DNA of 64,000 nucleotides from the NCBI GenBank assembly GCA_963696385.1, contig CAVOKF010000008.1, forward strand, positions 384,001 through 448,000. The letters run 5' to 3'. The notes beneath the pieces are model-generated. The model had not been told where the DNA came from and ran no database searches. It saw nothing but the letters and a program-made list of their open reading frames with translations. Positions 24,556-49,864 of this stretch are shown piece after piece; positions within the stretch are counted from its first letter, which is position 1, and each line of letters begins with the position of its first letter. Made by a program: the position numbers and the translations under genes. This DNA is from an uncultured delta proteobacterium. GTDB taxonomy: Bacteria > Myxococcota_A > Polyangia > Polyangiales > Polyangiaceae.

Positions 24556-24588
24556 GGCCTTTTCGCTCCGGGATCGTTGCCGCCGGCG

Positions 24589-26424: not shown

Positions 26425-26427
26425 CGC

Positions 26428-28914: not shown

Positions 28915-28932
28915 CGGGGACTCGGAAGGTCG

Positions 28933-29193: not shown

Positions 29194-29197
29194 CTCG

Positions 29198-30160
29198 TCA
29201 TTGAATGTTGTAATCGAGGTTGGTGTCCTGACCCTGCCGGTTCACCGACACGGTCAAGTGGTCCGCCGTGCGCAGTCGCGCGTAGGCCTCGAGCGCCTTT
29301 TCGGGACTCGTCATGTCGAAGCCGTTGATTTTTTCGAGTCGGTCTCCGTTGTTCATGCCGAGGGTACCGAGCAGGCTGTCGGGTTTGACCCCGAACAGCC
29401 GAATGCCGACGACCTTGCCGTTCTCTTGCTCGGGCACGATGCGCGCCTGTCGCATCAACTCGGCTTGGTTTTCGAGAATCTTGTCGACGACGCTGCGATC
29501 GATGTTGAATTCCGTCGCGCTGACCCTCTGAATGCCTTTCTTGATGTCTGCGGACACCCCGGGGCCGCCCGAGGGCGGAGGGGCGGGCGGGGGTGCGGCC
29601 GCGCTGCTGGCGGCCGGAGGCGGCCTGAACATCTCAGATTGGCAGAGCTGACTGCCGCTGGTCAGCCAGACGCGATCCCAACCGATGAACTTGACCGTCT
29701 TGCCGCCGAGATCTCCCCCGCGCCGCCGCAGGACGCTCTTGCCCTTGTCCTGCGACGTCTCGAGCGCCGCGAAGGACCAATCCGGGTCGGAGGACGCCGC
29801 GATGACCAGCACCTGTACGCCGTCGCATTCCGGGGCGCTGTACGGATCGGTCAGGTCCGGCGGGGGCGGCTCAGCCGCTTTCGCGTCCTCGATCAGCGCG
29901 ACGGCGTTGAGCGGACCGGTGACCGAATCAAACGGATTTCGAGAGAGGATGGACTCGGCGCTCGTGACGTGTCGACTCGACGACATCGGCGGCGGCGGCA
30001 ACCGTGCCGTGAGTGGCGGCACGGCAAGCTGCTTGTCGTCCGGAGCCAGGCTCGCACCGACGATCTGCATGATCCCCTGCGCATCGAGGAAGGCGGCGAT
30101 GGCGACCAAGAGAAGGACCACCGCCCAGAAGTGCCTTTTGAGGAGCTTGTCGATGGCCAT
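29198..30160 (-). CDS. gspC: T2SS protein C with PDZ domain
   Basis: N-terminal TM, ILSRNPFDS, C-terminal PDZ (ARIVP...GIRLFGVKPDSL..LGMNNGD..INGF). Confidence 0.92.
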   Translation of the reverse strand: MAIDKLLKRHFWAVVLLLVAIAAFLDAQGIMQIVGASLAPDDKQLAVPPLTARLPPPPMSSSRHVTSAESILSRNPFDSVTGPLNAVALIEDAKAAEPPPPDLTDPYSAPECDGVQVLVIAASSDPDWSFAALETSQDKGKSVLRRRGGDLGGKTVKFIGWDRVWLTSGSQLCQSEMFRPPPAASSAAAPPPAPPPSGGPGVSADIKKGIQRVSATEFNIDRSVVDKILENQAELMRQARIVPEQENGKVVGIRLFGVKPDSLLGTLGMNNGDRLEKINGFDMTSPEKALEAYARLRTADHLTVSVNRQGQDTNLDYNIQ

Positions 30161-34001: not shown

Positions 34002-35513
34002 GTGCAGTTGCTCGCCATCGTCCAGTCGGCGACGGCCGCGATGGATCTGTTCGCGGCACTCGTGCTGGCGCTGACTTTCCTGCGCCACCGTACCGATCGC
34101 GAGTATTCGCTCGCGGCGTTGGTCGCGCTCGCCGCCGCGCTGCACGCGGCCGGCACCTCGTTTTCGACGCACCCGATCTCGGGCATGTCCGCGCCCCTGG
34201 CCCATCTCGTCGCATCGTCGGGTCTGGTCGCGGCGCTGCCGCTCGCCGTTCACTTCGCGATCGAGTACTCGGCCGTCCAGGCACCGCGAACCCTGATCGG
34301 GGTCATTTACGGCGCCGCGGCCCTCGTCGAAGCCGTCGACCTCAGAGGGCCGCTCGGGGGTCGCGGGGCTCACGGTTCGCGGTTCTTCTTCGATGTGCCC
34401 GGTGCGATTTCGCACGCGCTCGTTCGAACCGACTCGCTCGTCGCCTCCGCTGCCGCCATCGTCGCCGCCGCTGCGGTCTGCGTGCTCGTTGGACGCCCAC
34501 ACCCGAGCGGTCGTCGCGAAGGACTCGCCATCGTCGCCGGATCGGGGGTGCTGCTCGCGGCGGCCCTTCACGACGTGGCGGTGGCGATCGGGGCGATCTC
34601 GTCCGGGCCCCTGGTCGACGTCGGGCTCACGGCGTTCGTCGTGGGCATCGCGACCACGCCAAGCGCGCGCTACGCGCAAGTCTCGCTCGATCTGGATCGA
34701 CGGACCCGGGAGCTTCGAACGCGGACCAGCGAACTACGGCGCTCGTACGAAGAGCTCCGCACCGCCGAAGAAGAGCTCGTCAAGAAGGAACAGCTCGCCG
34801 TCGTCGGCGAGCTCGCTGCCGTCATCGCGCATGAAGTTCGAAATCCGCTCGCGATCATCGCCAACGCGGTGGCAGGCCTGCGCAAGCAGGCCATGTCGCG
34901 CGAAAACTACGACGTCTTGCTGGCGATCCTCGATGAAGAGACCAGCCGTCTCAATCGATTGGTCACGGACCTGCTTCGGTACGCCCGCCCGGTCAACGTC
35001 CAGCGCACGTACGTCCCCCTCGAGGACTTGCTCGAGCGCGCGCTCGCACTCGCCGACACGGGCACGAAGAGCATCCGCATGGGTCTTACGATGGAGGTCG
35101 ACGAGGGGCACTACTGGGGCGACGCAAACCTGTTGCGTCAGGTATTCGACAATTTGATCGACAATGCCGTGCAGGCCATGACCGTCGGCGGCAGCCTGAC
35201 GATCTGCGTCCGCGCGGCCATCGAGGAAGGACTCGACGGGCTCGCGGTGGACATCATCGATACGGGCGAGGGCATGGACACGCAGGTGCGATCGCGCGCG
35301 CTCGACCCGTTCTTCACGACCCGCCCGAGCGGCACGGGCTTGGGCCTCGCCATCGTGGACCGTATCGTCGAGGCACACGGGGGGCGTCTGTCGATCGAGA
35401 GCCGCGCCGGCGAAGGAACCACCGTGACGGTGTTTCTGCCGCGGCATTCGGCGAGCGAGCCACCGAGAGCCTTGCAGACCGGGCCGCAGGACGGAAGCGA
35501 CGCCAGCGCATGA
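34002..35513 (+). CDS. Multi-TM sensor histidine kinase (NtrB-like core)
   Basis: About 7 TM segments, coiled coil, AHEVRNPL H-box, NAVQAM, DTGEGM, PFFTT, GTGLGL. Confidence 0.92.
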   Translation: MQLLAIVQSATAAMDLFAALVLALTFLRHRTDREYSLAALVALAAALHAAGTSFSTHPISGMSAPLAHLVASSGLVAALPLAVHFAIEYSAVQAPRTLIGVIYGAAALVEAVDLRGPLGGRGAHGSRFFFDVPGAISHALVRTDSLVASAAAIVAAAAVCVLVGRPHPSGRREGLAIVAGSGVLLAAALHDVAVAIGAISSGPLVDVGLTAFVVGIATTPSARYAQVSLDLDRRTRELRTRTSELRRSYEELRTAEEELVKKEQLAVVGELAAVIAHEVRNPLAIIANAVAGLRKQAMSRENYDVLLAILDEETSRLNRLVTDLLRYARPVNVQRTYVPLEDLLERALALADTGTKSIRMGLTMEVDEGHYWGDANLLRQVFDNLIDNAVQAMTVGGSLTICVRAAIEEGLDGLAVDIIDTGEGMDTQVRSRALDPFFTTRPSGTGLGLAIVDRIVEAHGGRLSIESRAGEGTTVTVFLPRHSASEPPRALQTGPQDGSDASA

Positions 35514-35682
35514 GCGGCGACGCGCCCGTCGCCAAGGCAGACATACGACATCGTCGGCCAGGCTCTCTACGGCCCGTCGACCGGACGCGGCTTGACTCCG
35601 AACGTCAAGCGCCCTCATACACGGGGTCCGCGGGACGGCGATCGACTGCCGGGGTCAGCAACCGGTAGCCCAATCTGCGATT

Positions 35683-35700
35683 CCGTCACGCGAACGTAAC
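35683..35700 (+). promoter_or_regulatory. Pho-box-like direct repeat upstream of the PhoB-like regulator
   Basis: GTCAC (35685) and GTAAC (35696) at 11-bp spacing. Confidence 0.4.
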
Positions 35701-35722
35701 TCCATCTCGATAGAGGGCACCC

Positions 35723-36415
35723 ATGGCGCGCATCTTGGTCGTCGAGGACGAAAGCGATATCCAGGAGGTCCTCGAGTACAATTTGAAGCGCGACGGCCAC
35801 GACGTCATGTTGACCTCGACCGCGAAGGATGGCCTGCGTCACGCGCGCGAGCGCCGCCCCGACCTGGTGCTCCTCGACTTGATGCTTCCCGACGGTTCGG
35901 GAACGGACCTGTGCAAGTCGCTGCGCCAGGACTCCGCCACGCGCGGCGTGCGGGTCATGATGCTCACCGCAAAGGGCGAGGAGATCGACCGGGTGCTCGG
36001 CTTCGAACTCGGCGCGGACGACTACGTGGTCAAGCCGTTCAGCGTGCGCGAGCTCTTGTTACGCGTTCAAGCCGTCCTGCGTCGTACGACGTCCGACGAG
36101 ACGGGCGAAACGATGCAGTTCGGAACCCTTCGCGTCGATCGGGGTGCGCACCGTATCTGGGTCGAGGGCCAAGAGGTGGAGCTTACCGCGCTCGAGTTCA
36201 AGCTGCTCGTCACGCTTTACGACCGCCGCAACCGCGTGCAGACTCGTGATGCGTTGCTGAGCGATGTCTGGAAGATCGACGCGGACGTGACGACCCGCAC
36301 CGTCGATACGCACGTCAAACGGCTGCGCGAAAAGCTCGGAACCGCTGGGATCTACATCCAAACCGTGCGCGGGGTGGGTTACCGCTTCGCCGAGAGGCCC
36401 GACGAGGTCAGTTGA
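35723..36415 (+). CDS. OmpR/PhoB-family response regulator (PhoB/PhoP-like)
   Basis: LLDLMLP, MLTAKGEEIDRVLGFELGADDYVVKPFS, RTVDTHVKRLREKLG, TVRGVGYRF. Confidence 0.93.
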   Translation: MARILVVEDESDIQEVLEYNLKRDGHDVMLTSTAKDGLRHARERRPDLVLLDLMLPDGSGTDLCKSLRQDSATRGVRVMMLTAKGEEIDRVLGFELGADDYVVKPFSVRELLLRVQAVLRRTTSDETGETMQFGTLRVDRGAHRIWVEGQEVELTALEFKLLVTLYDRRNRVQTRDALLSDVWKIDADVTTRTVDTHVKRLREKLGTAGIYIQTVRGVGYRFAERPDEVS

Positions 36416-36500: not shown

Positions 36501-36974
36501 TCAGTCCGATTCGCTGGCGTCCGGAGCCGCGTCGGTCGCGTCGGGAGTCGCGTCGGTCGCGTCGGAAGTCGCGTCGGTCGCGTCTGGAGTCGCATCGCCC
36601 ACCTCGACGTCCGGAGCCGCGTCGGACGCGTCCGGAGTGGCATCGCCCACCTCGACGTCGGAAGCCGCGTCGGACGCGTCGGGCTTAGCGTCCGGGGCCG
36701 CATCGGCAACCTCGACGTCCGAAGCCGCGTCGGACGCGTCCGGAGTCGCATCGACAACCTCGACGTCCGAAGCCGCGTCGGACGCGTCGGTCCCCGCATC
36801 CGCCACACCACTGTCGACGCCGGTGTCTGTCCCCGAGTCAGCGACGACGCCCGTCTCCAACGGAGCGTCCGTCCCGCTATCGGTGCCGGGCCCGCTGGAA
36901 GTGCTGCTGCTGCAGCCGACGGCGAGGAAAAGAAATGAAAGCGAAAGCGACCTCAAGACCTGATGCGAACGCAT
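36501..36974 (-). CDS. Acidic low-complexity lipoprotein built of DASDAASDVEVxDAxP repeats
   Basis: AGAGGAGGA SD, lipobox LAVGC, four 16-20-aa repeats then DAT(P/S) repeats. Confidence 0.75.
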   Translation of the reverse strand: MRSHQVLRSLSLSFLFLAVGCSSSTSSGPGTDSGTDAPLETGVVADSGTDTGVDSGVADAGTDASDAASDVEVVDATPDASDAASDVEVADAAPDAKPDASDAASDVEVGDATPDASDAAPDVEVGDATPDATDATSDATDATPDATDAAPDASESD

Positions 36975-37189
36975 GAGTCCTCCTCTACGTTAAAAAAGTA
37001 CCGGGCCAGCTCAGTGGGTACCGGACACGCGTATCTAGCAGGCGGCCGCATTGTTGCCAGGATGTAACGCACCACGCTTTCGCTTTTTTCTTTCACCGAG
37101 AGCGCACACCCCGGACGAATGCACCACGATGCGGCCTGATGCTTTGACTCCCTCCGAATCCGCCGCTCGTCGGCTCGGCGCGCGCTTGC

Positions 37190-39139
37190 ATGCAGCGCGC
37201 GCTCGAGAACCTGTCTCGGCGCCAATCCCCCGACGGCGCATGGTCGGGCGACTACGGCGGACCGATGTTCCTCCTGCCGATGTACGTTGCGCTGGCGTAC
37301 TCGGCCGGCGCGATTCCCGAGCGGCATCGCGCCGGCTTTGTCGACCACTTCCGAAATGTCCAAGGACAAGGCGATCGGATCGGCTTGCACGCCGAGGACC
37401 CGCGCGGGTCGATGTTCGCCACGGTTCTCGGCTACGTGGCGCAGCGTTTGTTGGGCGTCGAGCCCGACGAACCCCGGATGATCCGACTGCGAGCGTGGAT
37501 CCACCGCGAAGGGTCGCCTCTCGGCGCCCCATCGTGGGGCAAGTTCACGCTCTGTCTCTTGGGCCTCTACGACTGGAGCGGAATCCACCCCGTCCTGCCG
37601 GAGCTTTGGTTGCTGCCCCCCGCAGTCGCATTTCACCCGCGGCGGCTCTGGTGCCACTGCCGGCAAGCGTATCTGCCCATGGCGTGGCTTTACGGCCGCC
37701 GGGCGACCACTCCCGAAAACGCGCTCATCCGAGCCTTGCGTGACGAGATTTATGGGGCCGACGTTTACCCGCGCATTGCTTGGGCGGCACACCGGGACAC
37801 GATCGCCGCGACGGATGCGTGCCGTCCCCCAAACGCCGCCCTTCGAGCGGCGAACGGCCTGCAAGACCTCTTCGAGCCCATTTGCCCTGCGCGGTTGCGA
37901 CGGCGCGCCATGGATCGCGTCCTCGATCACGTTCGCTACGAGGACCGCGCGACTCAGTGGATCAACCTCGGGCCGGTGAACAAAGTGCTCAACGGCTTCG
38001 TCCACCACTTCAACGATCCGGGCGGCGACGATTTTCGGCGCGCGTTCGCCGCGTGCGAACCGTATCTATGGCCCGGCCACGACGGCACGAAGATGCAGGG
38101 CTACAACAGCAGCAAGCTCTGGGACACGGCGTTCGCCATCCAGGCTGCGCTGGCCGCCGGCGCCCCGCACTCTCACGGATCGCACCGCGCCATGGTCGAG
38201 CGTGCACACGGCTACCTCTGCGACAATCAGATCCTCGAGGACGTCCCGGATGCGGAGCGCTACTACCGTCACGCCTCTCGCGGCGGCTGGCCCTTCTCCA
38301 ACCGGGCGCACGGATGGCCCGTCACCGACTGCACGGCCGAGGGGCTCAAGTGTGCGCTCGCCCTCGAGGGCCAAACCGCCACGGACATTCCCGAAGCGCT
38401 CCTGCGCGACGCCCTCGCCTTGATCCTGTCGTGGCAGAACGACGACGGAGGATGGGCGACCTATGAACGGCAGCGCGGAGGCGCGTGGCTCGAGCTTTTG
38501 AATCCCTCCCAGGTGTTCGGCGACATCATGGTCGATTATTCGTACGTCGAGTGCACGAGCGCTTGTCTTCAGGCGATCGCCCGAGCGCGCATCCGGTTCA
38601 AGGAGACTGCCCTCGGCGAGCGAATCGACCAGGCCGTGAGACGCGGGGCGCGCTTTCTTCGCGGCGCGCAGCGTGCCGACGGCAGCTTCGAGGGATCCTG
38701 GGGCGTCTGCTTCACCTACGGAACATGGTTCGGCGTCAGTGGACTGCTGGCGGCCGGCGTGGCCCCGAGCGACTCGGCCATCGATCGTGCGTGCGCCTTT
38801 CTCCTACGCAAACAGCGCGCCGACGGCAGTTGGGGCGAGCACGGCGACTCCTGCCGCGAGCGGCGGTACATCGATGCCCCCGCGGGGGGCGCCGCCCAAA
38901 CGGCCTGGGCGTTGTCGACGCTCGTGCGCGCACGACACGCCAGCCGACCGGCGCAGGAGAGCGCGGTCCGATGGATCGTGGCTCGGCAACGACCGGACGG
39001 GGCATGGCCTCGTGAACCGCTCGTCGGAGTCTTCAACAAGACGTGCTTGATCAACTACGACAACTACCGCCACTATTTCCCGCTATGGGCCGTGGCCGAG
39101 TGGTACGCTACAGTCGCGGAGCCGCGATTCGATCGGTGA
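37190..39139 (+). CDS. osc: 2,3-oxidosqualene cyclase (sterol cyclase)
   Basis: DYGGPMFL, PELWLLP, WCHCR..YLPM, GPVNK, MQGYN, catalytic DCTAE (not the DXDD of hopene cyclases), LNPSQVFGDIMVDYSYVECTS, WGVCFTYGTWF, QW repeats, GVFN. Confidence 0.96.
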   Translation: MQRALENLSRRQSPDGAWSGDYGGPMFLLPMYVALAYSAGAIPERHRAGFVDHFRNVQGQGDRIGLHAEDPRGSMFATVLGYVAQRLLGVEPDEPRMIRLRAWIHREGSPLGAPSWGKFTLCLLGLYDWSGIHPVLPELWLLPPAVAFHPRRLWCHCRQAYLPMAWLYGRRATTPENALIRALRDEIYGADVYPRIAWAAHRDTIAATDACRPPNAALRAANGLQDLFEPICPARLRRRAMDRVLDHVRYEDRATQWINLGPVNKVLNGFVHHFNDPGGDDFRRAFAACEPYLWPGHDGTKMQGYNSSKLWDTAFAIQAALAAGAPHSHGSHRAMVERAHGYLCDNQILEDVPDAERYYRHASRGGWPFSNRAHGWPVTDCTAEGLKCALALEGQTATDIPEALLRDALALILSWQNDDGGWATYERQRGGAWLELLNPSQVFGDIMVDYSYVECTSACLQAIARARIRFKETALGERIDQAVRRGARFLRGAQRADGSFEGSWGVCFTYGTWFGVSGLLAAGVAPSDSAIDRACAFLLRKQRADGSWGEHGDSCRERRYIDAPAGGAAQTAWALSTLVRARHASRPAQESAVRWIVARQRPDGAWPREPLVGVFNKTCLINYDNYRHYFPLWAVAEWYATVAEPRFDR

Positions 39140-40001
39140 TGCGCGCCAGCATCTGAAGGACGGTCGCGCGCGGCACCTTGGCGCCTGCCCCGTCCTTCTC
39201 CAGACGATCGAGCGTCGCGTCCGCGAGGTCGGCGGAAAGCGTCGTGAAGCCGACGAAGCCCCGCGGCGCCCCACCCCGCTCGAGCGCAGCGATGTATGCG
39301 CGAGCCTTGTCCATATCGGCGCGGGCGATCGCGAGGACGTCCGACCGGGCCACCGTCGACGGCACGTACGCGCGCCCGTCCACCGCGTCGACCGATTCGT
39401 CCTTGAGGATATTCACGAGCTGCAGCCCTTCGCCGAAAGCGACCTGATTTTCGACCAGGGTCGCGCGAACCGCCTCGAGACTCGGCGCATCGTGCACGAA
39501 GATCTCGGTCAGAAGCTCGCCGACGATTCCGGCAACCACGTAGCAATACGCGCGCAGCTCTTCGAGGCTACCCAGTTGCAGGCCTCCCGCTTCGTCCATG
39601 CCTGCGACCGTCGTGCGCATGCCCCGAGCGGTGCGGCTTGCGTGTTCGAGCAGGATCTTCTGCGTCGCGGGATCCAGGCGCCGGACGTTCTCGAGCACCT
39701 CGGGCATGGCCCCCAACAGATCGAGGCACGATTGGTTCTTCGTCGGCGGATGCGCCAGCCACGTGCGAGCGTGCTCAGCCGAACGCGCCTCGGAAGGGTC
39801 GCCGAGAAGGGCCGCGAAGGTGTCGAGCGCCGTCACCCTGGCAGGCCGCGACCACAGCTCGGCATCCTCGAGCGTGTCGGCGATCCGAAAGAGCAGGTAA
39901 GCCAGGCAGGTGCTTCGCCGGGTCGGTTCCGGAAGAAGCGGAATCGCCAACGCGAACGTGCGGCTCGTCTTCGTGAGCAGTTCATCGAGAGAAACAGGCA
40001 T
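39108..40001 (-). CDS. sqs: Squalene synthase (single-enzyme FDFT1-type)
   Basis: TSRTFALAI, YLLFRIADTLED, YCYVVAGIVG, GLQLVNILKDESVD; GAGGAGG SD before ATG 40001. Confidence 0.9.
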   Translation of the reverse strand: MPVSLDELLTKTSRTFALAIPLLPEPTRRSTCLAYLLFRIADTLEDAELWSRPARVTALDTFAALLGDPSEARSAEHARTWLAHPPTKNQSCLDLLGAMPEVLENVRRLDPATQKILLEHASRTARGMRTTVAGMDEAGGLQLGSLEELRAYCYVVAGIVGELLTEIFVHDAPSLEAVRATLVENQVAFGEGLQLVNILKDESVDAVDGRAYVPSTVARSDVLAIARADMDKARAYIAALERGGAPRGFVGFTTLSADLADATLDRLEKDGAGAKVPRATVLQMLARITDRIAAPRL

Positions 40002-40142
40002 TCGCCAGAGCCTCCTCGGCACGTGGGGGTGTTCGCGAGCGCAAAACGTACGATCGGGTTTCTCCGAACCCGTTAGCTATCCGCCATACTATCGTTTTGA
40101 ACGTGGGCGATCGCCGAAACCGGCGCAAACGCACTTACGCAC

Positions 40143-41603
40143 ATGACCGAACGCACGGACGTTGTCATCGTCGGGGGAGGGTTTGTCGGCCTGGCCACCG
40201 CCGCGGCACTCGACGACGCCGGCGTGCGCGTGACCCTTCTCGAGGCCCTCGTCGGTCCGAACCCGGCGTTCCGCGGCGAGTTGATTCACCCAAGGGGCGT
40301 GCGCGCGCTCGCGTCGCTGCGCCTTTTGGATCCGCTGCTTGCCGCGGGAGCCGTGCGCGTACGCGGGTTCGCGGTCTTCCCCCCGCGATGCGCCGATCCC
40401 ATCACGCTGCCGTACCCGACCGACCGGCTTTCGGCCGAAGGGCCCGGGCTCGCGCTCGATCACAGGACGTTGGTCGATGCCATGCGCCAGGCCGTCGCGA
40501 CCCGGCCGCGCATCACGCTGGTCCGCGGCGCACGCGTAGACGACCTCGTTACGAGCGGCGATCGCGTCGTGGGCGTGCGATGGAGCGGCGGCCGCGAAAC
40601 CCGTGCCGGACTCGTCGTGGCCGCGGACGGGAGACACTCGCGGCTCCGAAAATTGCTCCGAATTCCGACGACCACCGAGCTTGTATCGCACTCGGTCGCG
40701 CTCGGATTCGAACGCGATGTCCTCGTCGCGCCGGCCCACGGCCATGTGTTCGTCGACGCCCCGGGACCCACGCTCGCCTATCCGTGCGGTCCGGAGCGCG
40801 TGCGCATGACCATCGACGTGCCTCTCGACCGAGCGAAAGGACGCGCCGAGATCCGGACCACCTTGCGGGAGGGCTACGCGGCGCAACTCCCCGACCGGAT
40901 GCGACGAGCCCTGATCGACGCTCTCGACCGCGACGATCTGGCGGGTGCGGCCAACCACGCCATCTCGACCCGCGCGTGCGCCGTGCCGGGCGCCGCTCTG
41001 GTCGGCGACGCGGGCGGATGCTCGCATCCGATCACGGCGACGGGCATGACGACCGGCATGCACGACGTCGTGACCCTCGCTGCCGCCATCGCACAAGACG
41101 GGCTGACCGACCGCGCGCTGTGCCGCTACCAGAGACGCCGGTATCGCTTCGTGCGCACCCGCGAGGCCTTCACGCACGCTCTTTACGACGTGCTGCGCGG
41201 AGCGGACAGCGGCGCCCGTGCGCTCCGCGAGGCCATGTTCGCCTACTGGTCGGCGAGCGGACGCGCACGGATCGCGTCGATGGGCGTGCTCTCGGGCGAC
41301 GACGAACGCGTCGCGACGTTCGCTCTGGAATACGCGCGGGTGGTCGCAACCTCGACCTCGATGATCGTCGGCCGCAGGATTGCGGATCGAAAGGGCGGTG
41401 CGATGTGGGCCGAGCTCCGATCCATGCTCCGGGCGGCCGGCGGGGCACTCGACGTCGCCATCGAAAAAGCGTCGTCCGTTCTGGCCCTCGAGCGCACGTT
41501 GAGCCTCCGGGCGCCGTCGGATCGGACGACCCCCGCCGGCGGGCGTTCGACGGGCGGCATCCCCGACGGCCGATCCGAAAGATCCGGGACCACGCACCCC
41601 TGA
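40143..41603 (+). CDS. Squalene epoxidase (FAD monooxygenase)
   Basis: GGGFVG Rossmann motif, GELIHPRGV, VAADGRHSRLR, GDAGGCSHPITATGMT (cf. GDA...HPLTGGGMT), LREAMFAYW; clustered with osc and sqs. Confidence 0.88.
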   Translation: MTERTDVVIVGGGFVGLATAAALDDAGVRVTLLEALVGPNPAFRGELIHPRGVRALASLRLLDPLLAAGAVRVRGFAVFPPRCADPITLPYPTDRLSAEGPGLALDHRTLVDAMRQAVATRPRITLVRGARVDDLVTSGDRVVGVRWSGGRETRAGLVVAADGRHSRLRKLLRIPTTTELVSHSVALGFERDVLVAPAHGHVFVDAPGPTLAYPCGPERVRMTIDVPLDRAKGRAEIRTTLREGYAAQLPDRMRRALIDALDRDDLAGAANHAISTRACAVPGAALVGDAGGCSHPITATGMTTGMHDVVTLAAAIAQDGLTDRALCRYQRRRYRFVRTREAFTHALYDVLRGADSGARALREAMFAYWSASGRARIASMGVLSGDDERVATFALEYARVVATSTSMIVGRRIADRKGGAMWAELRSMLRAAGGALDVAIEKASSVLALERTLSLRAPSDRTTPAGGRSTGGIPDGRSERSGTTHP

Positions 41604-41710
41604 ACGACGTCGACCAAGCAGAGTTCCCCCGGAAAGCTTCACTGGGGCGCTGTACTCGCTGGACGGAGAGACGTCGCGACGACGCGTCGCACCCCGGCCA
41701 CCGCGAACCG

Positions 41711-41722
41711 CCCCCCCCCCCC
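41711..41722. repeat. C12 homopolymer between epoxidase and MMPL genes
   Basis: Twelve consecutive C at 41711-41722. Confidence 0.9.
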
Positions 41723-41808
41723 GGCGCGCGCTCGAAGGGGGTGGCGCCAAGACACCCTGGGCCACGAAGGTGTGTACACTACGCCCCCCGCCCGCTCGGG
41801 CGACCGGC

Positions 41809-44028
41809 ATGCTCGACGCGCTTTGCGGCTTCACGGTTCGACATCGAAAGTCCATCCTGGTGTTCGCCGGCCTGTGGTTCGCCCTGGCCGTCACGGTGCT
41901 GTCGTCTGGAATCGGCCGGCTGTCGACCGGTTCCATCCGCGGGCTCGAATCGGATCGCGCCGGTCGGATCGTCGACGGGATCCTGCGGCGCGCGCCCGAC
42001 ACGACGTTCATCGCCGTCTTCACGTCGTCCACGCTCGACCCGACGGGCGACGCATTTCGCGAAGCGATGCAGGCCGCGCTCTCGCCTTTGGCACACGACC
42101 CGAGGGTCGGGTCCATCACGACGCCGTATAACGCCGGACCGCTCCGCGCGTTCGCCATGACCAACGAGCGGACGCACGCGGCCTACGCGTACATCTCGGT
42201 CGGGGGCGACTTCGGTCAAGCCGCGCATGCGTATCCGGCGCTGCGCCGTGAGCTTCGTTCCGACACTCTATCGATCACCTGCACCGGCCGCCTGCCGTTC
42301 GCCCGCGACCTCGACGACACGCTCGAGCACGACCTGCTGCGCGCCGAGGCCATTTCCCTGCCCGGTTGCGTGCTTTTGCTGTGCGTGGTCTTCGGGACCG
42401 CGGTCGCCGCGCTGCTGCCCGTCTGCGTCGGCGCCCTGGCCGTCGCGAGCGGCCTGGCGTCGATCCTGTTGCTGTCGCGCTTCGTCGATCTCGCTCAATA
42501 CACGCTCAACGTATGTTCGCTCATCGGCCTGGGCGTCGCGATCGATTACTCGCTCTTCATCGTGAGCCGGTACCGCGAGGAGCTCGCGGCGGGACACGAC
42601 ACCGTGGCCGCGCTTCGGTTGTCGGTGATTCGGGCTGGACGCGTCGTCTTGTTCTCCGGCTTTGCGGTGATGGTCGGTCTGTTCGGACTGCTCTTCTTCT
42701 CGCGCTCCTACCTCATGGGCATGGGCATCGGCGGAGCGATCGTGGTGGGCTTCTCCGTGGTCTTCGCGCTCACGTTCTTGCCGGCGCTCTTGGCGGTACT
42801 CGGCCCGAGGATTCACGCCGGCCGCGTGCCCTTCACGCGCCGGCGAGCCGCTGGCGGCGGTTTTCGGCGTACCGCGCTGTGGGTGATGAAGCGCCCGGTC
42901 GCCGTGCTCCTGCCGTGCCTGCTGCTGCTTGCGTGGATGGGCGCGCCCTTCGCGCATTTGCGCATGGCGGCCTCCGACGTCCGGATTCTGCCGCTCGAAG
43001 CCGAAGCACGGCACGGATTCGAGATCCTCCGCGTCGACTTTCCGGACGCGGCCGCCAACCATGTTCTCGCCGCCGTCGAGTTCCCGAGCGCGCCGGCTCT
43101 CAATCGCGCCCGCATCGAAGCGCTCTACGATTTCACCCACCGAGTCGCCCACCTGCCGTTCGTCGCGAACGTCCAAAGCATCGTCGACCCGAACCAATCG
43201 ATCGAACGCGACCAATGGGCGGATCTGCTGCTGTCGCCGCCCCCGGCGCTCGGCGCGACCATCGACCTTGCCAAGCAAATCAGCGTCGGCAGCCGCGCCG
43301 TCCTGGTGGACATCACCACCGACCGCGCGCCCGAGAGCGATCCGGCGCGGTCGATCGTCGCCGCCCTACGCGATCAGCGCCGCGTCGGAGACGGCACCGT
43401 TTACGTCGGGGGCCAGACGGCCACCGACGTCGACACGACCCAATACATCCGCGAGCGATTGCCTTACGTCGTCGGATCCGTCGTCCTCATCACCTACGTG
43501 GTCCTCTTTTTCCTGCTCGGGTCCGTCCTCTTGCCGCTCAAGGCGGTCCTCATGAATTTCCTCTCGATGGCCGGATCGTTCGGCGCGCTCGTTTGGATCT
43601 TCCAGGAAGGGCACGCCTTCGTCCACACGCCACGGCCCGTCGAGCCGTCGCTTCCGGTGCTTCTCTTCTGTACGCTCTTCGGCCTCTCCATGGACTACGA
43701 GGTCCTCATGCTGACCCGCATGAAGGAGGCGTACGATCGGACGGGAGACAACCGCACGGCCGTCGCAACGGGTCTCGAGAAAAGCGCGGGGCTCATCACG
43801 AGCGCCGCCGCCATCATGGTGTGTGTTTTTGCGGCGTTCGCGCTCGCCCAAATCGTGGTCATCCAAGCGGTCGGGTTCGGGATGGCGTTGGCCGTCGCGC
43901 TCGATGCCACCATCGTTCGGGTCCTGGTCGTCCCGGCGACGATGCGCCTTCTCGGGCAAGTCAACTGGTGGGCGCCACGTCCCTTGGCGCGTCTGGTCCG
44001 GGCGGTGGCCCTGGGCCGGACGCATTGA
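41809..44028 (+). CDS. MMPL-family (RND) lipid transporter
   Basis: Two repeats of TM + periplasmic domain + TM bundle with GVAIDYSLFIVSRYREE and GLSMDYEVLMLTRMKE Asp-Tyr pairs, LDATIVR, NWWAP. Confidence 0.93.
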   Translation: MLDALCGFTVRHRKSILVFAGLWFALAVTVLSSGIGRLSTGSIRGLESDRAGRIVDGILRRAPDTTFIAVFTSSTLDPTGDAFREAMQAALSPLAHDPRVGSITTPYNAGPLRAFAMTNERTHAAYAYISVGGDFGQAAHAYPALRRELRSDTLSITCTGRLPFARDLDDTLEHDLLRAEAISLPGCVLLLCVVFGTAVAALLPVCVGALAVASGLASILLLSRFVDLAQYTLNVCSLIGLGVAIDYSLFIVSRYREELAAGHDTVAALRLSVIRAGRVVLFSGFAVMVGLFGLLFFSRSYLMGMGIGGAIVVGFSVVFALTFLPALLAVLGPRIHAGRVPFTRRRAAGGGFRRTALWVMKRPVAVLLPCLLLLAWMGAPFAHLRMAASDVRILPLEAEARHGFEILRVDFPDAAANHVLAAVEFPSAPALNRARIEALYDFTHRVAHLPFVANVQSIVDPNQSIERDQWADLLLSPPPALGATIDLAKQISVGSRAVLVDITTDRAPESDPARSIVAALRDQRRVGDGTVYVGGQTATDVDTTQYIRERLPYVVGSVVLITYVVLFFLLGSVLLPLKAVLMNFLSMAGSFGALVWIFQEGHAFVHTPRPVEPSLPVLLFCTLFGLSMDYEVLMLTRMKEAYDRTGDNRTAVATGLEKSAGLITSAAAIMVCVFAAFALAQIVVIQAVGFGMALAVALDATIVRVLVVPATMRLLGQVNWWAPRPLARLVRAVALGRTH

Positions 44029-44037
44029 TCGGAGCGG

Positions 44038-47000
44038 CTACTGGATGGGTCCGTAGCCAAAGAAGAGAGTGAGCTGCCGCACGACGTCGAGGTTCGAAGC
44101 ATACGCCGTGAGCATCGTGGCCGCGTATTGAGCGCTCTGTGCGGTATTGGGGATCGAGTTGCCCTGGGCGTCCACCGCGTACGTGAGCTCGCCCGACACG
44201 GGGTCGGGGGTGCCCACCACCTGGTAGGCGATCTGAGCGAGCGTGTTGGCGTATTGGATCATGCGCGCGCCGATGGTCTTGGCGACGTCGAAGCCGATGG
44301 CCGGATTCACGACTTCCGTTCCGTAGTTTTTTGCGACGTACTCGATGCCCGTGAGCGGGTCCCGGTAGGCCACCAACTGATCGGTCGGGATCGACAGAGT
44401 CGCGGCGTCCCCGGGTGAGAAGATGCGCATCTGATCGATGAGATTCATCGTCAACGTCGTCGGCCCGAACCAGAAGAGGGAGATGAGCGCCGGGTACTGC
44501 TGCTCCCAACCCACCAGCGGGTCGAGCAGCACGGATCCGGCCGGGTAGGCCAGCGACGTCGTCGTCGTGTCGGTCGGATCGTATTTGTCCCACGGAAGGT
44601 ATTGAACCGGGGTGAGCGCACCGGGGGTGGTCGCGGGCATCGCGTACGGCGCGAGCGTGAAGATTTGAGCCACGGTGCCGCTGTCCATCACTTGCGTCGC
44701 ACTCTGGTTGGCCATCAGGTTGGCGAACAAACGTCGTATTTGATTCGGATAGACCGACGCAAAGTTCAGGTTCTTGTAGCGCCCGTCGACGTAGTCGTCC
44801 TCGGAATTCAGAATGAACTGGTTGTAGGCCTCGGTCATGTACATGGGAGCCAGGACTTTCTCGTAGTAGCTCCCGACCTGCGATTGGTAATAAGCCCACC
44901 AGTAGCCTTGGGTGTAGTCGTAGTTGTTCTCGATGTATCGGCCCTGCCCGTTTCCGAGCGCGACGTTGATCAGACTGGTGGGGGTCGTCAGCGAGTTCGC
45001 GTCGCCGATTTGCCACTCGCCCCCCCACGCGTTCGGCGGGCCGCCGGTTGCCGGCGTCCCCGCCGGAGTGACGACGTAGGCTCCCGGCGCCGGCCGCGTC
45101 ATGGCGCGGACGAACAGGGCAAGGCCGTCGTCGCCGGCCATCGCCAGGGGCATGAGCGCTCCCGGGTCGCTCATCGCAGCGGCACCGTCGAGCTCCGCTC
45201 CGAATGCGAGGGTCTTGACGAGCTGTTGGACCTTGTCGAAATACCGAGACTCGATGCGTTTGACGACCGCGTCCGTGTTGAAGAGGACCAGATCGCGTCG
45301 AAAATTGTTGAAGATGTACCGGTTCTCGTAGGTCGAGATGAAAAACTGCATCTGTTCGTACGAGTCGGCGCCCGCATCGAACCGAAACAGAGGCACGTTG
45401 CCGGCGTCCGCGTACTCGTCCCCTCCAAACATGTACGGGTGCCGGACCCGACCTGCAAACGACGGATTCGCCTGCTGCCGCGCTTTGGGCAGTCCGCTGT
45501 CCACCGCGAAATTCGCCACGAGATCCGGCCGAATGGCCGTGACGGCAGGCGAGTACTTGTCGACGGTCAGCATGTCGCGGGTGGCCACGTAGTCGAGGTC
45601 GGGCCCGCTGCACTGCTGAGCCAGCGGGTCGCTCGGATCGCCGGTCCAACCGGGCCGGGGCGTGCAGGTGCCGAGAATCGGGTACTTGTCGGCGTACGTG
45701 CTGTAGTGATTGCCGCCGATCGAATTGCCGAAGACCCCGTTGAATCCGTCGAGAGCCAGAAGGTAGTCGAGACCGCCCCGGCCGCCCTCGGCGACGCCGC
45801 TGGCTTCGGTGTACGTCATGTTGGTTTCGACGTCGCAGAGGTCGGCGTACGCGAACCGCATCGCCGCCTTGTCGTACGACCCAATGTCGTTCATGTCTTG
45901 GGTCTGGTCGCCCGGGTAGTCCATGACGCTCGTCGAGCCCCACTTCCAGATGAAGTCGTTGCCTTCCTGGGCCGTGACCGGATCCACCCATCGCGGTCCC
46001 ACGCACGTGCCCCCGCTCGCCTGAGGCGTCGTGGCGTCGAGCGTGCCCGGGTACCCGCAATAGTGCTCGGTGCCGTTTTGCGTCCGAAGCTGCCAGTATT
46101 CGGTGTGGTAGTTGAGCGCGTCGAAGCTTCCGGCGAAGTTGTGGCGAAGCCCCATCGAATGGCCCATCTCGTGGGCGATGACCGAGAGGTGAAGCTGTTG
46201 GCGGATCCAGGCGTAAAGCGCCGCATCCCGCTGGGCGTTCGCCGCCGCGCTCCCGGAGGTCGGCGCCGGGAAAAGCATTTGCGCCTGCCGAGCGAGACCC
46301 ACGAGCGAGTCCGGCTCCGGAACGCCGTCGTCGATGCTCATGTCCTTCTGGAGCAGCGCGGTGTTGATGACGCCGTTGCTCCATTTGCGAAGCTGGGGAT
46401 CCAGGCCCTGCAGCGGAGAGGCCAGCGCCACGGTGCTCGGAGATCCGGCGATCGGCTCCTGGGGGTTGAACCCGGCCCATTGAAGCACGTCGGGGGTGAC
46501 GAGCTGCGTTTCCCACGTCGAGCCGATGAGCTGCCCGCGAATCGACTCGAACTGAGAGTCCATCGTCGGGCCCAGAGCGCTCAGGTTCGTGGCCGCCACC
46601 TGGCGCCGGATCGGAAGCGGTAGGTTGTTCGAGGGCGTCTGTTGCGCCAAAAGCCGCAGTGCGTTGCCGTTGACTCCGGACAAGGCCGGCGACGACGTCA
46701 CGGCGCCTGCGGCCGTCAGGCCGTTCTGCTGGGCCATGGATGTGTCGATCGAATTGATGCGCGACGCGATCTCGGCCGTGGACAACACCGAGGGCGAGTA
46801 CTGAGCCAGTCCCATCTGGCTGCCCGAAGCCCATTGACTGAGGTACTGGCCGTTGGCGATCTGCTGGTTATTGATCTCTCCGTTGAGCCAGCGAATGAGA
46901 TCTTCGATGCTCTGCGAAGCGGTGTCGAGGACAGCGATCCACTCGTTGATGCTCGACTGGACCTTTTCGCCCGTGAGCGGGTCGTCGAAGTCGACGTCGA

Positions 47001-48645
47001 TGCCCCACGCCGACGGGAGCTGGGGGTTCGCGATGAGATCCACCACGTTGTAGCGCAGGTCTCCGAGGCGAACCGCCAGGCCCGCGGCGCCGCACGCCGG
47101 GCTGTCGCCTTGGACGACCGGATTGTGGCAGAGGACGAAAATGTCCGGGACCGTCAATCCATTCTGCTGATCGGCGAGCAGCTGGGCTTCGGTGGTCAGA
47201 ACCTCGGTGACCGGCGCGGCGCCATTCGGCTCGACGACGACCGGCGCGCCCACGCGATTCGCCTCGACGACCTTGCCGAGCTGCACGGCTCGCTTGACGG
47301 CGATGTTCCACGAATTCAGCGCTTGCGACGTCGTCGCGAACAGATCGGGGTCCGCGGTCGGACCGATGTAAAACGGCGTCGTCTTGGTGGATCTGAGGTA
47401 AAGCGGGATGTCGCATTTGTTGGTGAATTCGTCGCACCGCGAACCCGGATTCACGACGTCGCCGGCCGAGTCCTTGAACTCGCACTCGTCTTCCGTCCCG
47501 TCTTGGTCGGTATCGCGGTGGACGTTGGCGCCGACGGCGCTCTTGGTGAAAGGTTGACCGGCAGGGTCCGCAATCGGCAGTCCGGTCGCCGAGTCGAACA
47601 CGTAGTTGCCGCTGGCGTCGACCTGGTAGTTTTGCACGTTGCCGTTCGCATCGCGCCACGCGTCGATCGCGCACTGCGTCCCGGAGATGTGGCTCTGTTG
47701 CCAGATGTTGTACCGGGTGACGAAGCGGTTCCAATTCTGGTCCAGGATGCCGTAGTTTTGGGTGTAGCCGAATCGGTCGACGCTGAAGAACCCGAAGGCG
47801 TCCATCTTGGTTCCGTCCCAATTTTCGGGCTCGTAGTCGTCGTCGACCACTTTTTTGAACGAAAGGCGGATCGTGACTTCGGCCGGGTCGCAGGTGATGG
47901 CCGGATAACTGCCGAAAAGCCAGCACACCGGGAGATTTCCATAGGGCGTGTTGACGATCTGCGGATTGGCCGTGAGCATCGTCGTCACGTCGAAGTAGCC
48001 CTCTTCCGCATTGAAGACCGGGGCGTTCGGATCGCTCGGGTCCTCGATGTAATACGACACGGGGCTATACGTCAGGCCGTCGAGGGCGGCGCCCACGGAA
48101 AAAAGGTCGAAGTCGTAGGCATCGGTCACCAGGTTCTTCGACCAGTCCACGCGGAAGTACTGCCGTTCGTACCATGGACGATCCGTCGTGTTCTCCACGA
48201 TGACATTGAGCTGCTCGCCGGTCTGCAAATTGTAATCGTGAATGATGTCGAATTGGCTCTCGATGTTGAACTCCGCGACAATCTGGCCGTCGGTCGTGCT
48301 CGTGGCGCCGTTGTAGCCGCTGTTCGCAATGCGGTCGTAGGTCAGGCGAGCTACGAGAAGATTCTCTTGAATCTCCCATTTGACCCGGGCCAGCGACCCG
48401 ATCGCCTGAAACATCGCGAAGTCTTGTCCGAGCCCGTACGGTTCGCCGATGATCCGAGTGCCAAAGTAAAATTCCGGGTCGTCGGCCGGATCGCTCAGGT
48501 TCGGGCCCACGAAGAAACCCTTGTCGAGCGCGCCGGCCTGCACGCGATTGATCGGAGGTCGTGACTCGGCGCAGCTACTCGACAGAGCACACACGGAGCC
48601 GACGAGAACGAAGAAGGCGAGCCACCTCAAGAACTTCAACTTCAT
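44038..48645 (-). CDS. Very large (1535 aa) zinc metalloprotease lipoprotein, metzincin type
   Basis: Signal MKLKFLRWLAFF...LSSSC; HEMGHSMGLRHNF zinc motif and TSVMDYPG Met-turn. Confidence 0.88.
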   Translation of the reverse strand: MKLKFLRWLAFFVLVGSVCALSSSCAESRPPINRVQAGALDKGFFVGPNLSDPADDPEFYFGTRIIGEPYGLGQDFAMFQAIGSLARVKWEIQENLLVARLTYDRIANSGYNGATSTTDGQIVAEFNIESQFDIIHDYNLQTGEQLNVIVENTTDRPWYERQYFRVDWSKNLVTDAYDFDLFSVGAALDGLTYSPVSYYIEDPSDPNAPVFNAEEGYFDVTTMLTANPQIVNTPYGNLPVCWLFGSYPAITCDPAEVTIRLSFKKVVDDDYEPENWDGTKMDAFGFFSVDRFGYTQNYGILDQNWNRFVTRYNIWQQSHISGTQCAIDAWRDANGNVQNYQVDASGNYVFDSATGLPIADPAGQPFTKSAVGANVHRDTDQDGTEDECEFKDSAGDVVNPGSRCDEFTNKCDIPLYLRSTKTTPFYIGPTADPDLFATTSQALNSWNIAVKRAVQLGKVVEANRVGAPVVVEPNGAAPVTEVLTTEAQLLADQQNGLTVPDIFVLCHNPVVQGDSPACGAAGLAVRLGDLRYNVVDLIANPQLPSAWGIDVDFDDPLTGEKVQSSINEWIAVLDTASQSIEDLIRWLNGEINNQQIANGQYLSQWASGSQMGLAQYSPSVLSTAEIASRINSIDTSMAQQNGLTAAGAVTSSPALSGVNGNALRLLAQQTPSNNLPLPIRRQVAATNLSALGPTMDSQFESIRGQLIGSTWETQLVTPDVLQWAGFNPQEPIAGSPSTVALASPLQGLDPQLRKWSNGVINTALLQKDMSIDDGVPEPDSLVGLARQAQMLFPAPTSGSAAANAQRDAALYAWIRQQLHLSVIAHEMGHSMGLRHNFAGSFDALNYHTEYWQLRTQNGTEHYCGYPGTLDATTPQASGGTCVGPRWVDPVTAQEGNDFIWKWGSTSVMDYPGDQTQDMNDIGSYDKAAMRFAYADLCDVETNMTYTEASGVAEGGRGGLDYLLALDGFNGVFGNSIGGNHYSTYADKYPILGTCTPRPGWTGDPSDPLAQQCSGPDLDYVATRDMLTVDKYSPAVTAIRPDLVANFAVDSGLPKARQQANPSFAGRVRHPYMFGGDEYADAGNVPLFRFDAGADSYEQMQFFISTYENRYIFNNFRRDLVLFNTDAVVKRIESRYFDKVQQLVKTLAFGAELDGAAAMSDPGALMPLAMAGDDGLALFVRAMTRPAPGAYVVTPAGTPATGGPPNAWGGEWQIGDANSLTTPTSLINVALGNGQGRYIENNYDYTQGYWWAYYQSQVGSYYEKVLAPMYMTEAYNQFILNSEDDYVDGRYKNLNFASVYPNQIRRLFANLMANQSATQVMDSGTVAQIFTLAPYAMPATTPGALTPVQYLPWDKYDPTDTTTTSLAYPAGSVLLDPLVGWEQQYPALISLFWFGPTTLTMNLIDQMRIFSPGDAATLSIPTDQLVAYRDPLTGIEYVAKNYGTEVVNPAIGFDVAKTIGARMIQYANTLAQIAYQVVGTPDPVSGELTYAVDAQGNSIPNTAQSAQYAATMLTAYASNLDVVRQLTLFFGYGPIQ

Positions 48646-48682
48646 GTTTCCCGATCTCCCTCGAAACCAACCAAGCCGTTGC

Positions 48683-49864
48683 CTACGGGACACTTTGGCC
48701 CACCAGCCGGGCCTCGCGCGCACGCCGCGCCGCTTCGATCGAGTCGCCGACGCGTGCGCGATCCTTGGCGCCACCCATCGATCGCTCCCAGATTTTGTCC
48801 AGGTTCGCCGTCACGTCGACGAAAAGGCACGCATTCGGACTCCAAAACGCGTTGTCCTCGCCGCCGAGGAACGGCGAGCGCAACTGGCCGTTCATGCCGA
48901 CGACGTTGGCGAGGTCGTAGTAGCCGGCGCCCACCGACACCTCGTCCATCAGTTCGTAGTCGACCGACGCCACGATCCAGATGAACTGAGTGAATTGCTC
49001 GTCGTTCACGCGCGAGACGCTGGCCAGGCCCGTCAGTGTACCCACCGAGGAAGGAGGCGGAATGTAGTGCCACTGGTCGATCCAAATGGCGGTCGCGGCG
49101 ACTCCGAGCCGGGGCAGAATCTGCAGGCTCGCGTCCGCGATGGAGAAAAGGGCGTCTTTCGTCAGAGGGTACCCCGTCAACTGATCGGTCAGGGACGCGG
49201 CCCCCGAGTCGGTCTGGGAGAGAAACTGGGGATGGCAGTAGCCGGTCGCGGTGATCGCGCACGTGAACGGGTGAAGGTAGACAAAGCTCAGGCCCAGGCG
49301 GGCCGAGTTGAGCGCGGGCGCGTCATCGCCGCGGAGGGGAATTTTTTGAGACAGAGCCGCGAGACCGCCGAGCGTCACGTAGATGCCCGAGCCTAGGCTC
49401 TGCTGGGACGTGGGCCAGAGCGCGCGAAGCCCGAGTGACCATTTGCTGTTCTTGCCCATGCCGGAATCGGCAAGACGGCGCGAGTAGACGAGATCGGTTC
49501 CGATGTCGCCGAAGACATCCTGGCGATAGTAGGTCGTGTCCTCGCTGTTCGTGAACTCCTTGTAGTAATCGAATCGGGCTTGCACTCTCAGGTTGTCGTT
49601 GAAGTTCCATCGGGGTCGAAAAGACAACCACCAGCCGTAGTACGGAACGTACGAAAGCGGCAGCGAGGGATCGAGACGGATGGTTTGAGTCGACACGGCC
49701 TGGTCGAAGATGAACGTCGACCCGCGGAGTGGATCGCTGCTTTCGGACGGAGCCCGCTGGCCGCGCGCATCGTCCTCCGCATGCGCGAACGGATCGGCGC
49801 GAGCGCCGGAGGTCACGGTCGCGGCAGCGAGGAGCCAAGCCCCGGCGCCCCAGAGACGACTCAA
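48683..49864 (-). CDS. Putative outer-membrane beta-barrel protein
   Basis: Sec signal ending ARA; amphipathic aromatic-rich strands (WLSFRPRWNF, LRVQARFDYYKEF, IVASVDYEL, VSVGAGYY). Confidence 0.65.
   Translation of the reverse strand: MSRLWGAGAWLLAAATVTSGARADPFAHAEDDARGQRAPSESSDPLRGSTFIFDQAVSTQTIRLDPSLPLSYVPYYGWWLSFRPRWNFNDNLRVQARFDYYKEFTNSEDTTYYRQDVFGDIGTDLVYSRRLADSGMGKNSKWSLGLRALWPTSQQSLGSGIYVTLGGLAALSQKIPLRGDDAPALNSARLGLSFVYLHPFTCAITATGYCHPQFLSQTDSGAASLTDQLTGYPLTKDALFSIADASLQILPRLGVAATAIWIDQWHYIPPPSSVGTLTGLASVSRVNDEQFTQFIWIVASVDYELMDEVSVGAGYYDLANVVGMNGQLRSPFLGGEDNAFWSPNACLFVDVTANLDKIWERSMGGAKDRARVGDSIEAARRAREARLVGQSVP

Follow-up and report, generated by a model that had tools for sequence, protein, structure and literature searches.

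Which sterol an uncultured Polyangiaceae bacterium makes, and how far the sterol is processed, is the question raised by the 64,000-nucleotide stretch of DNA analysed here (the window; G000:C8:384001-448000), in which genes for an oxidosqualene cyclase (OSC), a squalene synthase (SQS), a squalene epoxidase and an MMPL transporter lie next to each other. The source genome (G000; 6.9 Mb, 8 contigs, not closed) is 96.4% complete and 2.8% contaminated. The stretch occurs in sequencing runs with the labels metagenome, soil, wetland and peat, and four runs (X1, X4, X8 and X11) were aligned to the window. An earlier sequence-only reading had described the four genes as a self-contained module making and exporting an unmodified C30 sterol. 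Our analysis points instead to a de novo pathway spread over two loci, in which a cyclase with valine at position 453 (positions 381, 449 and 453 are numbered as in human OSC, the lanosterol synthase LSS) and a tailoring locus on contig C6 would together yield sterols that keep the 14-methyl group; we rate the chances of this proposal as about even. The features concerned, with gene products named as predicted, are as follows.

37190..39139, + strand: osc, 2,3-oxidosqualene cyclase of the bacterial cycloartenol-synthase clade (649 aa; DCTAE motif at residues 380-384)
38321..38323, + strand: Val codon GTC at the equivalent of human OSC 453, with ATC (Ile) in the sister locus L044
39108..40022, - strand: sqs, single-step bacterial squalene synthase (304 aa; DTLED, a DTxxD motif; likely start ATG at 40001)
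40143..41603, + strand: smo/sqmo, FAD-dependent squalene epoxidase (486 aa)
41770..44028, + strand: MMPL/RND lipid transporter of the MmpL3 type, not the HpnN type (752 aa; likely start ATG at 41809)
G000:C6:326076-329446 (L232:8077-11450): bsr-sdmB-sdmA operon, unlinked to the window
40002..40142, no strand assigned: intergenic stretch flanked by the divergent sqs and epoxidase genes
37157..37158, + strand: an extra A relative to runs X1 and X11, loci L044, L147 and L148 and protein P0001, upstream of the ATG at 37190

All four window genes were recovered as open reading frames (ORFs) with matches to SQHop_cyclase (N and C), SQS_PSY, SE and MMPL above the Pfam cut-offs, and their identities bear out the route from farnesyl diphosphate (FPP) through squalene and 2,3-oxidosqualene to a cyclised sterol that the sequence-only reading had proposed for a myxobacterium. 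The enzymes are very probably what their names say. The closest solved relative of the SQS is human squalene synthase (E 2e-9); aligned to it, the first motif, DTLED, is DTxxD and not DDxxD, a difference that marks single-step Sqs against HpnC, HpnD and CrtB (PMC7306690). The SQS shows no departure at 96 conserved columns, and a separate CrtB is encoded in a carotenoid cluster on contig C7. The epoxidase scored 110 bits with PF08491 (cut-off 20), contains FAD-binding motifs, adjoins osc and is closest among solved structures to human squalene monooxygenase SQLE (E 6e-33; next match E 1e-13); it is 45% identical to the osc-adjacent epoxidase of Labilithrix luteola (L058). Some observations weigh against these assignments or their functioning: the best family of the SQS, TIGR01559, stayed below its cut-off (71 vs 287 bits), the cyclase scored 723 bits with TIGR03463, under the cut-off of 851, and Corallococcus coralloides, with an epoxidase and a cyclase, yielded squalene only (PMC4919349).

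The cyclase is the only one in the genome. Its closest solved relative is human LSS (E 3e-181), it scored 561 bits with TIGR01787 (cut-off 323), and it has the DCTAE motif, not DxDD. Catalytic residues were read off the alignment to human LSS, and the equivalents of H232, Y503, C533 and C456 are kept (D380, C381, C455, H156 and Y425 in the window protein). A hopene cyclase was considered and rejected, as the hopene model gave 220 bits under a cut-off of 431. According to Wei et al. (PMC4919349), the triad at positions 381, 449 and 453 is T/C-or-Q/V in lanosterol synthases and Y/H/I in cycloartenol synthases, and position 453 alone is predictive, with V453 matching lanosterol in every bacterium tested. 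The window cyclase reads Y381/H449/V453 (window residues 305, 374 and 378). It thus shares V453 with lanosterol synthases but has neither T381 nor C/Q449, having Y305 and H374 there, and it shares Y381, H449 and clade descent with cycloartenol synthases but not I453.

The Y381/H449/I453 triad was found in 66 of 69 genome loci (a set derived from the best 80 of 191 confirmed matches in the genome collection, many on short contigs), in 118 of 119 proteins, and, among 73 metagenome loci, in 60 of the 64 that cover the site (9 do not). Within the 90% cluster of the window cyclase (n = 15), Val is found in the 5 members at 99.5-100% identity, one of which is probably the record of the window itself, and Ile in the 10 at 92-94%. 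Long contigs of X1 and X8, from two studies and with 9 and 7 other differences from the window, span 38321 without a difference there (X4 and X11 have no listed piece that reaches it); these contigs and the five near-identical Val proteins exclude sequencing error as the source of V453. In a quick IQ-TREE phylogeny of 62 rows, the window cyclase was nested in I453 rows (SH-aLRT 97-100), within a 23-row group including L. luteola (SH-aLRT 99), and dS to the sister is about 0.2. Taken together, the contigs from two studies, Ile in the relatives, the nesting in the tree and the low dS indicate that the I453V change is real, recent and derived. V453 is a derived, species-level state: near kin have I453, and this species alone has Val. 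The other Val rows of the tree, L177/L209 (Y/H/V) and L185/L186 and L039 (Y/N/V), arise separately.

Further variants at 453, apparently also of independent origin, were seen in or near the cycloartenol clade in L099 (Y/H/V, not in the tree), L103 (Y/S/V) and P0088 (Y/H/T), and some 453 variants also carry H449N, as plant lanosterol synthases do. L086, from Streptomyces griseocarneus, is a Y/H/I cyclase on a long branch beside the myxobacterial clade. Eight genomes of the family carry two oxidosqualene cyclases (L321, L322 and L324-L329, in G132, G179, G212, G233, G249, G150, G277 and G287), and the copy nearer the window cyclase reads Y/Q/V.

In plants, the I481V mutant of Arabidopsis cycloartenol synthase (AtCAS, CAS1) gave significant lanosterol with residual cycloartenol, and H477N gave the full switch (10.64898/2026.05.26.727834). 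That I481V mutant has the same Y/H/V triad as the window cyclase. Set beside it and plant LAS1, the window cyclase occurs in nature, belongs to a bacterium and is fixed in a wild species, and it has not taken the second step, H477N, taken by plant lanosterol synthases (and by L185/L186 and L039). In open-licence PMC/bioRxiv literature we found no description of a Y/H/V cyclase that arose naturally within the bacterial cycloartenol clade, and the residues of a lanosterol/parkeol metagenomic cyclase were not found in a search of the supplement of PMC12324236. This one substitution has probably moved the cyclisation product away from the plant type and closer to the animal type; we regard it as likely that V453 gives much lanosterol. 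The effect might instead be minor, with a Y381/H449 enzyme still making mostly cycloartenol and the pathway leading to the 4-desmethyl 9,19-cyclosterols that are predicted for the sister with I453. The plant enzyme speaks for this, since I481V with H477 intact is a partial switch and one passage of the same source calls the lanosterol small; so do the downstream genes, which are shared with the sister species. The complete agreement between V453 and lanosterol in the bacteria tested by Wei et al. (PMC4919349) speaks against it, as do three changes, V160A, V409L and L463I, fixed together with V453 in all five near-identical proteins. V160A corresponds to human V236, next to H232 and Y237, and V160 is otherwise invariant (67 of 67 loci, 119 of 119 proteins). 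We consider a minor effect of V453 unlikely.

Changes of this kind could also accumulate in a pathway that is dispensable and decaying in the genus, V453 and the other departures then being drift in a weakening or silent gene. The cyclase is patchy within the genus (5 of 30 other genomes), and the window cyclase departs from its relatives at 12 of 189 conserved columns, the most of any relative above 53% identity, which also fits loosening constraint. Its branch excess is weak (p 0.018, or p 0.096 after one polymorphic and one shared site are dropped), and one departure, Y211C, is not fixed, as X1, X4 and X8 and three of the five near-identical proteins have Tyr there. Against the 93%-identical locus L044, the ratio of nonsynonymous to synonymous substitution (dN/dS) among the four genes is highest in the epoxidase gene (0.43, compared with 0.17 for osc, 0.11 for sqs and 0.16 for MMPL), cyclase matches lie in two pieces in L032/L070 (residues 591-609) and L035/L087 (550), and the extra A at 37157-37158 adds to the same side. 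This A is probably an assembly error or a strain variant; if it is removed, the cyclase frame begins 15 or 20 codons further upstream (P0001, the form without it, has 669 aa), and the true osc start may be 37129 (ATG) or 37144 (TTG), out of frame in the window through the extra A. Decay is nevertheless improbable: the cyclase dN/dS of 0.17 against L044 equals that against more distant relatives (0.15-0.17), 10 of 11 strain differences on the long contigs fall on third codon positions, the catalytic residues are intact, and the four runs contain no indels inside the cyclase gene. Split matches also occur in L099 (368) and L110 (229-236); in all these loci they may reflect either assembly error or decay. 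The cyclase of the sister genome G003 was considered as a pseudogene and this was rejected, its in-frame stop being at position 644, six residues before the end.

The claim that the module is self-contained and its product unmodified was not supported once contig C6 was taken into account. A gene of the geranylgeranyl-reductase (GGR) family stands between the epoxidase and MMPL genes in several relatives, and its 75-76% ortholog in this genome lies on C6, followed by genes for a short-chain dehydrogenase/reductase (SDR) and a Rieske oxygenase. Among the Bsr homologs in Table S2 of Lee and Welander (PMC12004948) is L. luteola WP_146645625, which shares 62% identity with the C6 reductase, and a 75% ortholog in L070 passes TIGR02032; the Bsr assignment was made via such listed homologs and the link to sterol genes. 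The Rieske protein contains the CxH..CxxH and iron DxxHxxxxH motifs, and SdmA (NCBIfam NF052579, 381 bits, under the cut-off) was its sole family at E<=1e-10. The adjoining SDR matched SdmB best (NF052578, 308 bits, also under the cut-off; HpnA 256) and may be of the SdmB or the SdmC type. The set resembles the characterised SdmAB of Methylococcus capsulatus, Enhygromyxa salina and Calothrix and the Bsr of Sandaracinus amylolyticus, with the same Rieske and SDR pair and a GGR-family reductase. As C6 carries homologs for C-24 reduction and C-4 demethylation, the module in the window is not self-contained.

The C6 trio likely acts on the product of the cyclase. Of 61 relatives, 11 gave SdmA matches, and each of these has a cyclase; among 251 genomes of the family, 38 gave matches, and of the 34 further ones 32 have a cyclase at E<=1e-60. 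The conserved trio is essentially confined to cyclase-bearing genomes. Homologs of the three genes stand beside osc in L032, L041, L042, L057, L073, L078, L084, L094, L101, L109 and others, and the trio is under purifying selection against G003 (dN/dS 0.13-0.28). Alternatively, the window alone makes unmodified lanosterol and/or cycloartenol, and the C6 genes act elsewhere, on prey sterols, or are idle. This is the less probable account, given the co-occurrence of SdmA homologs with a cyclase (11 of 11 and 32 of 34), the presence of the same genes inside the osc clusters of relatives and the purifying selection on them. It draws support from the position of the locus on another contig, from scores for SdmA and SdmB under the curated cut-offs of 600 (four related SdmA-like proteins, at 348-557 bits, are likewise below that of NF052579), from three genomes with a cyclase and no SdmA match (G025, G005 and G007), and from cultured Cystobacter, which makes plain cycloartenol despite a Bsr homolog (PMC4919349, PMC12004948). 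Points of biochemistry also weigh against a role of the trio on this product: E. salina SdmAB alone took off no methyl (PMC10202945), and the activity of Bsr was demonstrated with just two sterols, zymosterol and desmosterol (10.1101/2024.11.01.621555). The sister genome G003 carries the same trio with I453, and the trio therefore does not need the I453V switch.

The absence of CYP51 and sterol reductases from the window, noted in the sequence-only reading, was confirmed (no P450 or sterol reductase among 23 window proteins scanned with Pfam) and for CYP51 extends to the rest of the genome, where none was found with genes of relatives as queries. The CYP51 of a relative (398 bits to M. capsulatus CYP51) matched only one P450 of 24-27% identity, and this single P450 was rejected as CYP51 (110 bits vs 398 for the true one). 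ERG24 and ERG2 gave no match with such queries. PF01222 matched in 7 of 12 genomes and not in G000, and PF19298 and PF05241 had no match in the genome; nor had PF04622 and PF08498, for which no positive control matched either. PF18916, linked to cyclopropyl isomerase, had no match in the genome, nor in G047, where one was expected. PF04116 (ERG25/ERG3) had three matches, one in the carotenoid cluster and two unlinked, with no sterol family over its cut-off. The carotenoid cluster (L234:3218-9767, on C7) comprises a B12-binding MerR regulator, a phytoene desaturase-like protein, a phytoene synthase, a hydroxylase and a polyprenyl synthase. A hydroxylase-SDR fusion on C6 (L235:5522-6649) weakly matches PRK07424, 'bifunctional sterol desaturase/short chain dehydrogenase' (67 vs 336 bits).

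As there is no CYP51, the 14-methyl group would stay. Characterised SdmAB and Bsr hosts also have CYP51 (PMC10202945), and this genome differs from them in lacking it. SdmAB of three hosts act on lanosterol in E. coli, with none, one or two methyls lost depending on the host (PMC10202945); since lanosterol itself is a substrate, C-4 demethylation is possible without prior C-14 demethylation. The gene set is not unprecedented: Supplementary Data 1 of PMC10202945 shows SdmAB but a blank for CYP51 in five organisms, among cyanobacteria, Streptomyces and, in one row, Sandaracinus. Among SdmA-bearing genomes of the family, the best cyclase was read in 35 of 39, one copy each (no cyclase matched in G121 and G236, and the count does not include G115 and G081). 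I453 was present in 10 of the 35, none of them with CYP51 and seven with a Bsr-like gene; these ten (G003, G017, G031, G086, G135, G151, G160, G197, G224 and G288) belong to five genera and are 80-100% complete. V453 was present in the other 25, with CYP51 in 23, the exceptions being G000 and G194. Related genomes are not independent, and these counts of cyclase and CYP51 ignore kinship. Outside the family, G047 (78% complete, 6% contaminated) goes against the association, having I453, SdmA, CYP51 and ERG24 together. A route from a cycloartenol-type cyclase with SdmA and without CYP51 was not found described in open-licence literature, though figures and supplements of PMC8237579, PMC7306690 and PMC12004948 may show some combinations; in the same scope no report was found of bacterial modification of cycloartenol or, in PMC/bioRxiv, of SdmAB (or Bsr) acting on it. 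Lee and Welander (10.1101/2024.11.01.621555) mention cycloartenol synthases in metagenome-assembled Polyangiaceae genomes, and infer that Myxococcaceae leave cycloartenol unmodified and that most Polyangiaceae make simple sterols.

The fourth gene of the cluster is a candidate sterol exporter. The closest solved relative of the MMPL protein is mycobacterial MmpL3 (E 4e-81); it has two PF03176 repeats (250 bits) and both Asp-Tyr pairs (IDYSLF and MDYEVL). It scored 324 bits with NF052608 (MmpL3-like) and 52 and 24 bits with HpnN models, and HpnN was absent from 20 PDB matches. In M. capsulatus, BstABC likewise includes an MMPL-family RND protein beside sterol genes, and BstA is described as closest to HpnN (PMC10942540), whereas the window protein is MmpL3-like and stands without bstB or bstC; it is set apart from BstA by that description. 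That it carries sterol is possible, at somewhat less than even chances. The other account, that it is a general lipid exporter with a substrate other than sterol, concerns the transporter only, overlaps the readings given above and is evenly poised. It is favoured by MmpL3 being a glycolipid/phospholipid exporter, by the lack of bstB/bstC (PF16811 had no match in the genome, where no positive control matched), by the presence of MMPL near only 10 of 69 osc loci, and by homologs (49-57% identical) in 7 genomes without a cyclase match, out of 14 strong-match genomes among 61 searched. In those 7 genomes no triterpene neighbours were seen among the flanking ORFs scanned, and a 26-row MMPL tree mixes linked and unlinked copies. 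Against it, the gene adjoins osc or the epoxidase gene in two distinct clades of cyclases that differ in gene order (L044, L057, L058, L070, L178, L184, L230 and L231; L090-L093, L095, L098, L192, L193 and L197), and within the genus it is present in 6 of 6 cyclase-bearing genomes vs 5 of 25 others, kin not being independent. A second such MMPL in G017 stands beside a fusion of SQS to the N-terminal half of a hopene cyclase (L228:5475-11805), after an HMG-CoA reductase fragment; the fusion ORF looks rearranged or broken. No report of an MmpL3-type protein in sterol clusters was found in open-licence PMC/bioRxiv literature.

The arrangement, which the sequence-only reading had not recognised from characterised clusters, proved not to be rare among relatives. 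The order osc(+), sqs(-), epoxidase(+) recurs in 24 of 69 loci, some with intervening genes, and this recurrence together with purifying selection against L044 indicates that the grouping is not due to chance. The complete four-gene order is also present in L044 (same genes and flanks), L070 (reductase inserted), L147, L148, L178 and L184, and L. luteola is among the 10 loci with MMPL near the cyclase. Epoxidase and cyclase are two locus tags apart across Myxococcaceae in published tables (PMC4919349, PMC10202945). As the arrangement recurs among relatives and epoxidase and cyclase lie close together in these tables, the cluster belongs to a known type. Like the Myxococcaceae and L. luteola cycloartenol clusters (smo and osc; PMC4919349, PMC12004948), it combines an epoxidase with a cyclase of the same clade, and L. 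luteola, whose cyclase is 63% identical, likewise has MMPL and a Bsr homolog. It differs from them in V453 instead of I453, in the SQS gene inserted on the opposite strand and in the presence of SdmAB, for which Supplementary Data 1 of PMC10202945 has no entry in the rows of L. luteola or of any Myxococcaceae. The cluster is ordinary for myxobacteria, and what appears new is the predicted pathway to which it belongs.

The cultured L. luteola locus consists of osc, epoxidase, a family-4 glycosyltransferase (L058:12830-14545) and MMPL (WP_146653616). Homologs of this glycosyltransferase (53% and 43%) are encoded here at G000:C6:272142-273266 and 264920-266425, about 55 kb from the bsr-sdm locus; sterol glycosylation is possible, as is mere membership of a common family. 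Class III aminotransferases stand near sterol genes at L070:2248-3555 (upstream of osc), L230:4665-5960 (after MMPL) and L255:13-1452 (beside sdmA). In the window, the 3' ends of sqs and osc overlap by 32 bp, and 40002..40142 is a presumed promoter region, in which no sigma-70-like site was found and a promoter scan gave nothing above chance. The genes have a GC content of 0.67-0.71 vs 0.66 for the genome, no sign of recent foreign origin. A histidine kinase and an OmpR-type regulator (34002-36415, +) are kept upstream of osc in L044, L045 and L070 and could be plain synteny or a cluster regulator. Divergent from osc, 36501-36974 (-) is a repetitive ORF of 157 aa, rich in Asp/Ala, whose N-terminus looks lipoprotein-like by eye, without a Pfam match and otherwise seen in the sister locus only. 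At 44038-48774 (-), convergent on MMPL and 9 bp away, a 1578 aa protein with a zincin metalloprotease motif is encoded, 96% identical in L044, and type II secretion genes lie at 23152-30160 (-) (gspF, gspE and the secretin gspD, with a probable gspC without a Pfam match).

In the two-locus pathway proposed here, every activity and product is a prediction. Mevalonate-pathway genes on contig C3 (HMG-CoA reductase, a GHMP kinase and a polyprenyl synthase) would supply FPP, which the window SQS would convert to squalene, and the epoxidase with O2 would form 2,3-oxidosqualene. The I453V cyclase, of cycloartenol-synthase descent, would most likely give lanosterol and some cycloartenol, with parkeol presumably a possible further product. 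On C6, the SdmA Rieske oxygenase and the SdmB reductase would take off one or both C-4 methyls, and Bsr would reduce the C-24 bond. The end products would be 4,14-dimethyl- or 14-methyl-cholest-8-enols, with 9,19-cyclo counterparts from the cycloartenol share, and MMPL would most likely move the sterol out of the inner membrane.

More broadly, and tentatively, the data may reflect a widespread, undescribed bacterial route of C-4 and C-24 tailoring in which the 14-methyl group is never removed. At least 10 genomes of the Polyangiaceae family would start from cycloartenol and make 9,19-cyclosterols usually tied to plants, presumably of the 31-norcycloartanol or pollinastanol type. This species would be one mutation into a cycloartenol-to-lanosterol switch that, by the tree, is happening several times in bacteria, and the MmpL3-type protein would be a second, unrelated bacterial sterol exporter, a question for which L. 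luteola offers a cultured host. The sister cyclases, 93% identical and differing as I vs V at 453, are a natural pair for the one-residue rule, which is used to annotate every bacterial cyclase and enters arguments on the first sterol of the eukaryotic ancestor. If the route is real, sterols that keep the 14-methyl group and are trimmed at C-4 are made by myxobacteria common in wetlands and soils. This would bear on whether such lipids and their fossils can be read as markers of plants or eukaryotes, and on the sterol features that bacterial membranes require.

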